Made by a program: the position numbers
IMG/VR virus record: IMGVR_UViG_2778261165_000019
Coordinates: 1-32,631 of that record
DNA length: 32,631 nt
Strand: one strand, 5' to 3'
Source: a virus
Taxonomy: Duplodnaviria; Heunggongvirae; Uroviricota; Caudoviricetes
Shown here: positions 24,001-27,000 of the stretch, piece after piece
How positions within the stretch are numbered: position 1 is the stretch's first letter
Layout of the letters: every line of letters begins with the position of its first letter

Positions 24001-27000
24001 CTTCTGTAACGCCGTATTTCTCGCCTATATCACGGAGGCTAAGGACTCCGGCCCGGTATGCCGATTCGATGGCCTCCCAGTCCGGTTTTGCCATGAATTT
24101 TTCCTCTTAGTGACATTATCGAAGCCCCTTATCAAAGGAGCTTCTGTAATGTCAGTCCCGAACAAACGTAACCTTCGTGTTTGTCGCTCGCCTTACAAGG
24201 CGCGCCGCTTCGCGTTGCATTTCATCGATAACTTTTTGCGTCATCGGCTGATGCGCATATTTACGTTCAATCTCTGCAAAAATCCCGTTCATCGTTTCGC
24301 TGTCTGGTGGGATAACTTCAACGTTTAATCGTGCCATTGGTTTGTGCTGCCCTGTTTTTCTCAAAAGTCCTGATATCGGCCTTATCCCTGTTGCACTGTG
24401 CTAACGCTGACAACAACGCAACATTCAGGTTAAGGCTGGCTCCCCACGTAAACGGGTCGGGTAAATCTGGCTGGGGTGTTTCATCCGTCAGACTGGCTGG
24501 TAACGGAACGACCGGCACCGACACGTATACCGTTCGCGTATTCGTGCAACCGCTTAACTGCGCCAGAAGGAACGATACGAACAGCACAATCATCATCCGC
24601 AACAGCCACTTTGATATCTTCCTGGGTTCTCTGTGACTCCAGTGCGATCTGCTGTTTTGCATGCTGGTTAGCCTCTATAACTGTATTGATGATTTGCAGT
24701 GATTGCAGGACGTTACTGGTAATGGCTGTTGCAGATTCAGCATTTCGTACAGCCTCATCAGCACGCTCCTTTTCGTGTTGATATTTGCTGTAGTAATGCC
24801 CGGCAGACCAGATAAAAGAACCGATGACGGTAACAAAGAAGGCAACAATAACCAGCTTATATCTCAGCTTCATTTACCACCCCACCAGCTTCTTTAAATC
24901 GGGAAATCAGGTCACCGATTCTATGTTCATACTGACCGTAACCTGCACCAGGTAACGACGCCCAGATATTGCTGCAACGGTCGATTGCCTGACGAATATC
25001 GCCGCGGTCAATCATCGGTAAAGCGCCACGCTCTTTAATCTGCTGCAGCGCTACAGCATCCTGGCTTTCTGGAGAAAAATCTTTCAGGCCAAGTTGCTTG
25101 CGGTAGGCATCCCACCAGCGAGAAAGAAGCTGGTAACGTCCGGCGGCTGTTGATTTGAGTTTCGGATTTAGCGTGACAAGTTTGCGGGGGTGATCGGAGT
25201 AATCAGTGAACAGTTCGCCACCGACAATAACATCATAACCGTGATTTCTGGTTTTCTGCCGTCCGTTATCTGTTCCTTCTGACCATGCCACCATATCAAG
25301 GAAAGCTTTACGCTGGGAATTAAGTGTCTGCATTAATTACTCCTTATGGGCACCGAACTTGTTACCGATGACCCTCATTGCCGCACCACGAATAGCATCA
25401 ACACCAATCAGCCCCACCCCACCACCAATGGCAACAGAAAGTGATTTAGGCCATCCGACATACTCAAGCGCGGATGCAAAGGTCAGCGTCAGGGCACCAC
25501 AAAGCAGAATCTCAAGCGTTTTTCGTTTCCAGCCGCCGCCACCGCCAAAATAGGCAATGCGCAAACCAGCCATAATAATTGACATGACCACTGCGCCCAG
25601 CGGCGTATCTCCACGCCACCAACTTTGTAAGAGTTCCAGTAAGTCAGGCCAGGAATGAGGTGCATTGTGCATTTTCATAAGCCTCACCTCCGAGAGTTCG
25701 GATGGTGCTAAATGTAAGATTCAGGCTCTCAGGCTTGCTAACAAGAAGTCGAGGATGTTTCCGGAGCCTAACAACGAAAAAGCCCCGGGACATGCCGGGG
25801 CCAGATGGAGTGCCAGATTAAGCTTCTGGCGGTATATCCTCGTGTTTGATATCGTTAAATCGCCAAAAGTAACCATATCAATTAAAGGAGTATATATGGC
25901 TAGTTTTACTGTCCGCGTTGAGCTTGTGGGTGCATCATCCGATGACTACAATCGCCTTCATGAGGCGATGGAATCCCGAAGATACTTTCGCGAAATTCAA
26001 GATGGAGCAGGAAACTGGTTTTATCTTCCAGACGCTGAGTACACAGCCGAAAAAAACGCATCTGCTCGCGCAGTCCGAGATGAAGTTGTGGCCATCGCTG
26101 GGACAATAAAAAAGAACCCTCGGGTGCTAGTCACTCAGGCGGCAGATCGCTCATGGCATTTAATCAAGAAGTGAGTTTTGATCGCCATTAACGGGTATTC
26201 CGTTCCCGCTACGCCCCTCACCAACCTCAGGGGCGCTTTCATAGCGCTCCATCGCAATAAACGCAGCAGCGATGCGATGCCCCAAATTTTCAAAATCATC
26301 CACCCCCGCGTTAGCCCGAGCCACAATGAACTGACCCAGCGTGATTTTGGCCTGAGATCGGGAATCAGAAGATAATTCATAAAATTTCATGGGTGTTCTC
26401 CAGAAACAACAAAACCCGCTCAATGGCGGGTTCTGGTAAAGTTCATGCGCTTGGTTCGCCTCGCGATACAGCTTTGCGAAGCGTACCGGAATTGAAGCAG
26501 TTTATGGCTAAAATTGCAAGAACTTTTTTAAAGCTGCATCAGCCTTTCCACCAGTTTATCTCTGCGAACAACAAACCAACCATTGGCTCTCGCCAGTTCC
26601 AGCCATGACTCAAGGGAAATAACAATATCATCATCCCGCAACTGAATTGTGGAAACAGTGACACCGCCTCGCTGATAACAGAGAACTCGCGTGTCGTAAC
26701 TTTTCTGGCATGAAACTGGCGCTGACGGATCCTTTTGTCTGAAATAGCAGTCTTCCAGCTTTTCGAACACATCCCACGCCTGATCGGTTTCGAGCATTTT
26801 GGCATGACGGGCTGCTCCGCGTTCTGTCCAGAGGATGAGGGAGCGGGCTTTCGGGGAAATTTGCAACCCTCTTAAAGATGGTTGCAAATTTTGTGAGTTA
26901 CTTAAAGTAACCCGCAAATTTTGTGAGTAGTTTAAAGCTACCCGCAATTCTTTAAGGTCATTACCAACAACTTTGAAAAAGTGTTTCCCTTCAACGAAGC

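Follow-up and report, generated by a model that had tools for sequence, protein, structure and literature searches.

Why would a temperate phage carry a single small gene that points against its own late operon, just ahead of the lysis genes? The question is raised by a 32,631-nt stretch of DNA from a virus of the Caudoviricetes (IMG/VR virus record IMGVR_UViG_2778261165_000019, analyzed at its full length and here called the window), in which a gene for a protein of 92 amino acids (aa) occupies positions 25896..26174 of the plus strand, from an ATG at 25896 to a TGA at 26172-26174. Inspection of the sequence shows a ribosome-binding site (RBS), AAAGGAG (25884..25890, plus strand), 5 nt ahead of the ATG. 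The gene converges on a 76-aa minus-strand gene (26160..26390), the first open reading frame (ORF) behind a terminator, and the coordinates of the two ORFs overlap at their 3' ends by 15 nt (26160..26174). The first lysis gene downstream in the late direction encodes a lambda-family holin (25337..25687, minus strand; Pfam PF05106, E = 2.1e-27, and the Prokaryotic Genome Annotation Pipeline [PGAP]). A first-pass annotation, made from the sequence alone, had described the 92-aa gene, its RBS and its convergent overlap, all of which we found in place, and had called it the only phage gene on the plus strand outside the invertible segment. This holds as well: the plus-strand genes in the window, which stops short of the immunity region, are host yebW, the tail fiber genes of the pinE invertible segment and the 92-aa gene, with no others, and the PGAP annotation of a near-identical prophage and our own crude gene call agree on this list. 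The prophage in question, in Escherichia coli PK8241, is 100% identical to the window over 25600-26500, and both small ORFs are annotated there as hypothetical proteins; overall, the window is a mosaic relative of it from a different strain. The opposite orientation and the 3' overlap had been treated as a local oddity, and we found instead that they are the hallmark of a whole protein family.

One answer would be that there is no gene to explain, as both ORFs are small, lack characterized relatives and have no Pfam domain above threshold, which is what might be expected if one or both of them were spurious. The ratio of nonsynonymous to synonymous substitution (dN/dS) of the 92-aa gene is 0.11 in comparison with Klebsiella aerogenes and 0.10 in comparison with a second E. 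coli allele, and that of the 76-aa gene is 0.17-0.44. Because these values are well below 1 and both proteins belong to conserved families, we concluded that both ORFs are real genes and that the 92-aa gene is under purifying selection (dN/dS ~0.1). The size and conservation of the families, a confident structural model of the 92-aa protein and good RBSs on both genes point the same way. Conservation of the two ORFs, which had been proposed as a check, was thus found for both, and it has already refuted the idea of spurious ORFs, to which we assign next to no probability.

Remote-homology searches, also proposed earlier, gave a family for each protein. The 76-aa protein matched phrog_26625 (E = 1.7e-46), and the 92-aa protein matched phrog_8894 (E = 2e-38), with residues 1-92 aligned to positions 1-92 of the 94 in the profile. 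The latter also aligned over its full length with NCBIfam NF051477, "YmfI family phage protein" (60.8 bits, E = 1.3e-16), at a score below the NCBIfam equivalog cut-off of 140 bits, and it is therefore a family-level relative rather than an equivalog of the YmfI protein of e14. BLASTP found no similarity between the 92-aa protein and YmfI of E. coli K-12. Since K-12 YmfI matches both phrog_8894 (E = 8.6e-40) and a profile built from relatives of the 92-aa protein, the two proteins are members of one diverged family. That profile, made from 21 relatives and searched against a library of clusters at 50% identity, retrieved 2,383 cluster representatives at E ≤ 1e-3, of which 1,460 passed E ≤ 1e-10. 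The family occupies accessory positions in temperate phages from Enterobacterales, Aeromonas, Pseudomonas, Burkholderia and Ralstonia, and a few relatives are already named GhoS or DUF2622 by NCBI. In a set of 112 representatives with 30-55% identity to the window protein, R7 and M25 never vary, and conservation at Y18, L21, H22, P45, E48 and Y49 is ≥96%; the window protein has all of the family residues (R7, Y18, L21, H22, M25, L44-P45 and A47-E48-Y49). When domain fusions were sought in the longer family members, the only candidate was a 499-aa protein with weak, sub-threshold integrase matches, probably a gene-call fusion with a neighboring integrase gene, and the other longer members had no extra domains. 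The 92-aa gene is thus a new member of a catalogued but uncharacterized family, for which we found no functional study in the literature on ymfI, ymfJ, DUF2622 and GhoS-like proteins.

To see how such genes are placed, we compiled neighborhood statistics for 80 IMG/VR loci, with genes called by a simple codon-usage caller. In 75 of 78 viral loci, both neighbors of the YmfI-like gene were on the opposite strand (42 of 45 once the loci were dereplicated at 80% identity), a placement shared by only 51 of 849 (6%) of the other genes in these loci. The YmfI-like gene overlapped a convergent ORF in 66 of the 80 loci, by 4-48 nt, an arrangement seen in only 4 of 60 other convergent pairs. The same odd-strand placement occurs in annotated phages of Burkholderia, Aeromonas and Pseudomonas, in prophages of Klebsiella, Serratia and Kluyvera and in e14; most annotated examples converge on and overlap a small gene, by 4-63 nt, and in K. 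aerogenes the overlap is the identical 15 nt. Two sites recur, the Q-to-lysis interval, as in the window, and the early-left operon near the repressor, as for ymfI/ymfJ of e14. Ahead of the ATG, by 40-55 nt (mostly 40-51), a TGnTAnnnT motif is present in 28 of 47 family representatives, compared with 4.2% of random control windows, and in several representatives that lack it, a TAGACT or TAAACT hexamer takes its position. Family-wide backward placement behind what may be a promoter of its own suggests that the protein is made while the phage is dormant, and the pattern as a whole reads as a strong comparative signature of a lysogeny-specific function. Apart from the K-12 entry in the ExcludonFinder list, where ymfI-ymfJ appears as a convergent excludon on the basis of RNA-seq coverage (PMC12288877), this combination of antisense placement and overlap seems to be undescribed. 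In the K-12 SOS response, late induction is strong for ymfJ, and ymfI responds only weakly (PMC11002266).

The loci also showed some further features. Most YmfI genes of the early-left type have an elaborate upstream region ~100 nt ahead of the ATG (for example, in loci L046, L048, L061 and L064). In it, two alternative hairpins that overlap, GCCTG...CAGGC and AACCAC...GTGGTT, precede a direct repeat, TTCCACAGTCAA...AGGAA, whose copies lie on both sides of a -10-like motif, TGATATGTT. Single copies of the repeat are found in e14 and in Aeromonas phage pAEv1818 (loci listed: L003, which is e14, L010 and L015). Possible readings of the repeat are an operator pair, an RNA site for autoregulation and a duplicated 5' untranslated region (UTR). 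In a K. aerogenes prophage (L013, 3687-5021, plus strand), a gene for a 444-aa KAP-family NTPase, a type often linked to defense, shares its strand with the YmfI-like gene and stands in the interval from Q to the partner gene, where it is a second antisense accessory gene.

In the window, the extent of the inserted unit could be read from prophages that lack the gene. Among 5,426 complete E. coli genomes, 18 have the 92-aa gene and 23 have the 76-aa gene. Prophages of the BCE049 type, which carry a 76-aa homologue without the 92-aa gene, are 98% identical to the window up to 25881 and again from 26176, and 825 bp with a 189-aa minus-strand gene stand in place of the 294 bp between; homology to a variant locus in strain 50579417 also breaks at 25881/25882. 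From the break at 25881/25882 and the resumption at 26176, it follows that the swappable cassette (25882..26175, plus strand; 294 bp) consists of the RBS and the ORF only. Immediately upstream lies an element, TTTGATATCGTTAAATCGCCAAAAGTAACCATATCAA (25845..25881, plus strand), with an extended -10-like motif, TGATATCGT, at 25847-25855, which from its conservation across alleles is probably the promoter and 5' UTR of the cassette. In Kluyvera and Enterobacter-type loci, it is nearly identical ahead of very divergent YmfI-like alleles, also when a different gene comes next, and it is more diverged in Klebsiella. The stretch 25803-25895 was matched by 270 E. coli genomes, 233 of them at 90-95% identity, and at the variant locus that we inspected (a 94%-identity match), the element precedes a different, 53-aa plus-strand ORF with an RBS of its own that likewise converges on its minus-strand neighbor. 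In our reading, the site ahead of the lysis genes is a conserved slot for antisense expression whose small genes are exchanged for one another. The variant contents of the slot (L106, 2540-2755, plus strand, and 2724-3293, minus strand; L006, 1817-2386, minus strand) are a 189-aa minus-strand protein with hydrophobic stretches (phrog_11870) and the 53-aa plus-strand ORF, which is rich in Pro and Gln and has a good RBS. The first-pass annotation had taken the Q-to-S interval as a classic site for moron genes such as toxin and exclusion genes. Location, swappability and an apparent promoter of its own bear out a moron-like gene; a toxin or exclusion gene is not indicated, as neither small protein matched the defense models of PADLOC-DB 2.0 and the composition of the gene is normal.

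Two intrinsic terminators lie around the pair, one between the cassette slot and the holin gene (25781..25802) and the other ahead of a conserved block, CTGGAGAACACCC-ATG, that leads into the 76-aa gene (26410..26435). Each hairpin has a predicted energy of ~-16 kcal/mol (z-scores, -2.9 and -3.4, respectively), and at both sites a U-tract comes after the hairpin only when the minus strand is read. They therefore stop transcription in the direction of the late operon and are not terminators of the plus-strand gene. The earlier claim that the gene is flanked by intrinsic terminators was accordingly right about the two sites, but these do not bracket the plus-strand gene as signals of its own. 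A third minus-strand terminator (27304-27320) stands on the path from the Q-proximal promoter. We also considered a plus-strand hairpin at 26211-26236 as a terminator and rejected it, as it has no U-tract and lies inside the coding stretch for the conserved MERYESAP sequence of the partner. A terminator and the same RBS block precede 76-aa homologues directly after Q in other phages, and in the inspected variant E. coli locus, the sequence corresponding to window positions 26400-26513 adjoins the Q-like gene. The unit of terminator and CTGGAG-N7-ATG block (window 26391-26527, minus strand) is found ahead of all 76-aa homologues, right behind Q (L097, L101, L105, L016, L013 and L106).

Structure prediction had been suggested for both small proteins. 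AlphaFold2 with the family alignment gave a model of the 92-aa protein with a predicted local distance difference test (pLDDT) score of 96.3 and a ferredoxin-like order of secondary structures, in which the middle strand region is split into three short strands. In a Foldseek search of the PDB, the single match below E = 1e-3 was GhoS (2LLZ; E = 3.4e-4; template modeling scores, 0.69/0.64), and GhoS was the best structural match by two independent methods, with Cas2 RNases second. Identity to GhoS is only 12-14%. The Pfam GhoS model was matched at E ≤ 1 by 12 of the 21 relatives, all sub-threshold (best E, 8.7e-5), and one relative scored 20.6 bits against a cut-off of 21. We regard membership of the YmfI family together with a GhoS-like fold as almost certain, so that the blank identity implied by the earlier "function is unknown" can be replaced by the large YmfI/phrog_8894 family and a GhoS/Cas2-like ferredoxin fold. 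Because this fold is combined with a conserved R/E/H/E/Y constellation, the protein is predicted to bind or cleave RNA; action on specific RNAs through the conserved polar site (R7, E9, Y18, H22, E48 and Y49) would be the most likely role, and RNase activity as such is a tentative proposal in which our confidence is low.

The 76-aa partner had no structural match. Its family is smaller, is confined to Enterobacterales and has no informative name. AlphaFold2 (pLDDT, 71) modeled it as a two-helix hairpin (helices at residues 8-26 and 33-52), with a disordered C-terminal tail (residues 56-76 below pLDDT 50); a fold search with this model returned nothing below E = 2, and BLASTP against YmfJ found nothing. 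The tail, whose codons span and adjoin the overlap, differs greatly between homologues in both length and sequence. Since it is both disordered and hypervariable, the overlap seems to be unconstrained by the function of the partner protein. A search just downstream of the YmfI stop codon for a shared DNA or RNA motif that might explain the recurring Gly/Ser-rich tails of the partners found none; the tails look like junction read-through. Yersinia homologues of the 76-aa protein (P0206, P0210, P0211, P0221 and P0228), one of them a Y. pestis prophage protein present on >500 contigs, are named "formyltetrahydrofolate deformylase" in NCBI, a name that is implausible for proteins of 48-79 aa (most of them 66-69) and looks like a propagated annotation error.

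The reading that we favor, with about even confidence, is that the 92-aa gene is a functional, moron-like and independently transcribed YmfI gene for an RNA-targeting protein, expressed by the prophage and overrun by Q-driven late transcription. The 294-bp cassette would have been installed backwards in the conserved slot that separates the first late gene from the holin gene, where the extended -10-type element at 25845-25881 would read it out and the strong RBS would give efficient translation. Its transcription would run head-on into the Q-dependent late operon, with overlapping 3' ends. In the lysogen, transcription from the Q-proximal promoter (an isrK-like leader) would be halted at up to three minus-strand terminators while the 92-aa gene is on, and any residual late transcription would meet the convergent transcription as well as one more minus-strand terminator ahead of the holin gene. 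Because the terminators stop Q-proximal transcription, the plus-strand gene should be expressed in the lysogen, and we infer that it probably is, independently of the late operon. During lytic growth, Q-modified polymerase would pass all three terminators and collide with and silence the cassette, and the outcome would be an excludon-like, mutually exclusive expression. Candidates for the RNA target would be the leaky lytic transcripts of the phage itself, host RNA or the RNA of an invader.

Several observations weigh against this proposal. The G+C content of the gene (0.491, compared with 0.50 for the window) shows no compositional anomaly. A simple sigma-70 scan found no plus-strand promoter in 25688-25895, and as the -35 region of the candidate is poor, the case for a promoter rests on the extended -10. 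No plus-strand terminator for the 92-aa gene was found in the scanned stretch before ~27737, which is inside the Q-like gene, and the neighbor statistics rest on our own crude gene caller. The RNA-directed part of the proposal faces difficulties of its own. The ferredoxin-like fold is common and hosts many functions; the window protein has no match to Pfam GhoS (PF11080) at E ≤ 0.1; a sequence profile search of the PDB missed GhoS, which was found only by comparison of folds; and hhalign aligned the family to GhoS with a probability of only 20%. In the gapless register of that alignment, R28 of GhoS, its most important catalytic residue (PMC4010927), faces the family-invariant H22, a His rather than an Arg, and D15 faces E9, a correspondence that at this low confidence is suggestive and not secure. 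There is also no GhoT-like partner beside the 92-aa gene: the sole downstream plus-strand ORF (26178-26375) is not hydrophobic, and the other neighbors are on the opposite strand, in contrast to ghoS and ghoT of K-12, which are co-directional. As no GhoT-like gene adjoins it, the 92-aa protein is a YmfI-family protein with a GhoS/Cas2-like fold and not a demonstrated GhoS orthologue.

Other explanations share much of this evidence. GhoS is the antitoxin of a type V system (PMC4010927), and the 92-aa and 76-aa genes might by analogy form a dedicated two-protein module of the toxin-antitoxin or type V-like kind, in which the YmfI-like RNase would control the mRNA or the protein of its partner. 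Such a pair would fit the finding that the convergent neighbor is far more conserved than the others (the outer neighbors are almost all different), that two partner families cover 50 of the 80 loci and that every look-up from a partner homologue led to a convergent YmfI-family gene. Yet there are at least six partner families, with no mutual homology by hhalign and no function assigned to any of the six by Pfam or PHROG, and convergent partners from unrelated families argue against a toxin-antitoxin pair. Moreover, the family of the partner follows the genomic context (Q/lysis or cI) and not the YmfI subtype, 5 of the 23 E. coli genomes with the 76-aa family lack the 92-aa gene, the partner is modeled as a soluble helical hairpin rather than a membrane toxin, and the genes overlap in a disordered, hypervariable tail and are convergent rather than co-transcribed. 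We therefore consider a dedicated pair unlikely.

Alternatively, the main role might lie at the level of RNA and transcription, with antisense transcription insulating the lysis genes, and possibly the antirepressor, from leaky transcription of the late/isrK operon and with the protein as secondary cargo. In a common variant locus (~233 genomes share the element match), an unrelated 53-aa ORF fills the slot and would be driven by the same element, plus-strand transcripts lacking a terminator would run antisense into the 76-aa and AnrP-like genes, the 3' overlap is enriched family-wide, and the slot lies just ahead of the holin gene or near the start of the early-left operon. Strong purifying selection, invariant polar residues, >2,000 clusters and a strong RBS make this improbable, since such constraint on the protein is hard to explain if the protein is irrelevant. 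The RNase-like protein might instead act on host or incoming-phage RNAs and not on those of the prophage, as a lysogenic-conversion or superinfection-exclusion gene. Antisense, independently promoted genes of temperate phages are typically expressed by the prophage, the family occupies accessory positions across temperate phages of several bacterial groups, and the defense-like KAP NTPase adjoins a YmfI-like gene in Klebsiella; against this stand the failure to match PADLOC, the fact that no experimental link to defense was found in the literature searched and the tight positional tie to the starts of lytic operons, which would be left unexplained, and we give this possibility correspondingly little credence. 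In a further reading, in our view equally doubtful, YmfI genes could constitute a widespread but unrecognized lysogeny-side module in which a GhoS-like endoribonuclease and the convergent transcript silence leaky transcripts of the lytic operon around the gene. Its targets would be the lysis genes or the antirepressor here and the early-left genes in e14-type phages, and antiterminated lytic transcription would then switch the module off. If true, prophage latency would be guarded at the RNA level by a type V-like system with the architecture of an excludon.

What had been called a late leader upstream of the pair is not a simple leader. On the minus strand at 27192-27388, Rfam returned three matches above the gathering score: isrK (27299-27375, 75.5 bits), C4 antisense RNA (27192-27275, 66.7 bits) and the C4 a1/b1 target (27336-27388, 50.5 bits). 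A Q-like gene (27408-28082, minus strand) lies upstream of this stretch, and downstream of it is an ORF6N/anti-repressor-like gene, here called AnrP-like (26528..27139, minus strand; Pfam PF10543 and PHROG anti-repressor families). The order of Q-like gene, isrK-C4 and ORF6N gene matches the antQ-isrK-orf45-anrP locus of Gifsy-1 (PMC4825925). From the Rfam matches and this layout, it follows that the leader is an RNA switch of the P1 immI-like/IsrK type that controls an antirepressor. The distance from the start of isrK (~27375) to the terminator at 26410-26435 is ~965 nt, with which the ~900-nt isrK-orf45-anrP-isrJ transcript reported for Gifsy-1 is consistent; Rfam isrJ had no match. Relative to other phages, the isrK-C4-ORF6N module looks like a ~900-bp insertion between Q and the leader/terminator unit. 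The ORF6N gene contains internal repeats of ~30 nt at 26857-26947 (protein LRVALNYSQNLRVTLSNSQNLQPSL...), the alignment of the window with PK8241 is broken at 26860-27040, with a net length difference of ~50 nt, and the ORF has 203 aa in the window and 185 aa as annotated in PK8241, which suggests variation in repeat number in the antirepressor-like gene. No tRNA genes were found within 24000-29000. In the early region, the near-identical prophage has an annotated Hok/Gef family toxin gene, at ~29400-29560 of the window (minus strand; PK8241 coordinates, 29358-29510, offset by ~50 nt), and a Sok-type antisense RNA, if present there, would add another plus-strand transcript to the window.

For the window itself, the gain is modest: a hypothetical gene acquires a family (YmfI/phrog_8894), a GhoS/Cas2-like fold, cassette boundaries and a probable promoter. 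Beyond it, more than 2,000 clusters of a small conserved phage protein emerge whose genes are almost always set against the flow of a lytic operon and overlap the 3' end of the gene that they face. The family includes an unstudied E. coli K-12 gene, ymfI, and is thus open to experiment in a standard laboratory strain. Should the protein prove to be an RNase that acts on phage transcripts, it would control prophage latency in a new way and broaden the type V toxin-antitoxin paradigm, the only one of its kind known so far.

The nearest known relative is YmfI of e14, with which the 92-aa protein shares a PHROG and a family profile. Like the window gene, e14 ymfI is a plus-strand gene among minus-strand genes that converges on and overlaps a small gene (ymfJ, by 63 nt), and it has an extended -10-like motif ~40 nt upstream. 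The two proteins differ in having no pairwise BLASTP similarity, and the window protein falls under the equivalog cut-off; e14 ymfI sits in the early-left region beside the repressor and not in the Q-holin interval, and its partner YmfJ is unrelated to the 76-aa protein. With GhoS (YjdK; PF11080; PDB 2LLZ), the 92-aa protein has its fold in common, whereas low identity, the absent Pfam match, the lack of a co-directional GhoT-like membrane toxin gene, the His at the R28 position (in a low-confidence alignment) and the contrast between a phage antisense cassette and a chromosomal two-gene operon set the two apart. Cas2 is more distant, with a weaker similarity than that of GhoS and with neither cas1 nor a CRISPR context here. 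Like lambdoid morons, the gene is present or replaced among close prophages with sharp boundaries, probably has its own promoter and lies in the Q-to-S interval; unlike classical morons, it shows no terminator of its own in the stretch scanned, has a normal G+C content, is oriented against the surrounding operon and overlaps its neighbor. Its geometry is that of excludons and of OOP-cII control, with convergent genes whose coordinates overlap at the 3' ends. The OOP RNA of lambda overlaps the 3' end of cII in the same way, but the antisense transcript predicted for the window differs from OOP in that it would encode a conserved protein.

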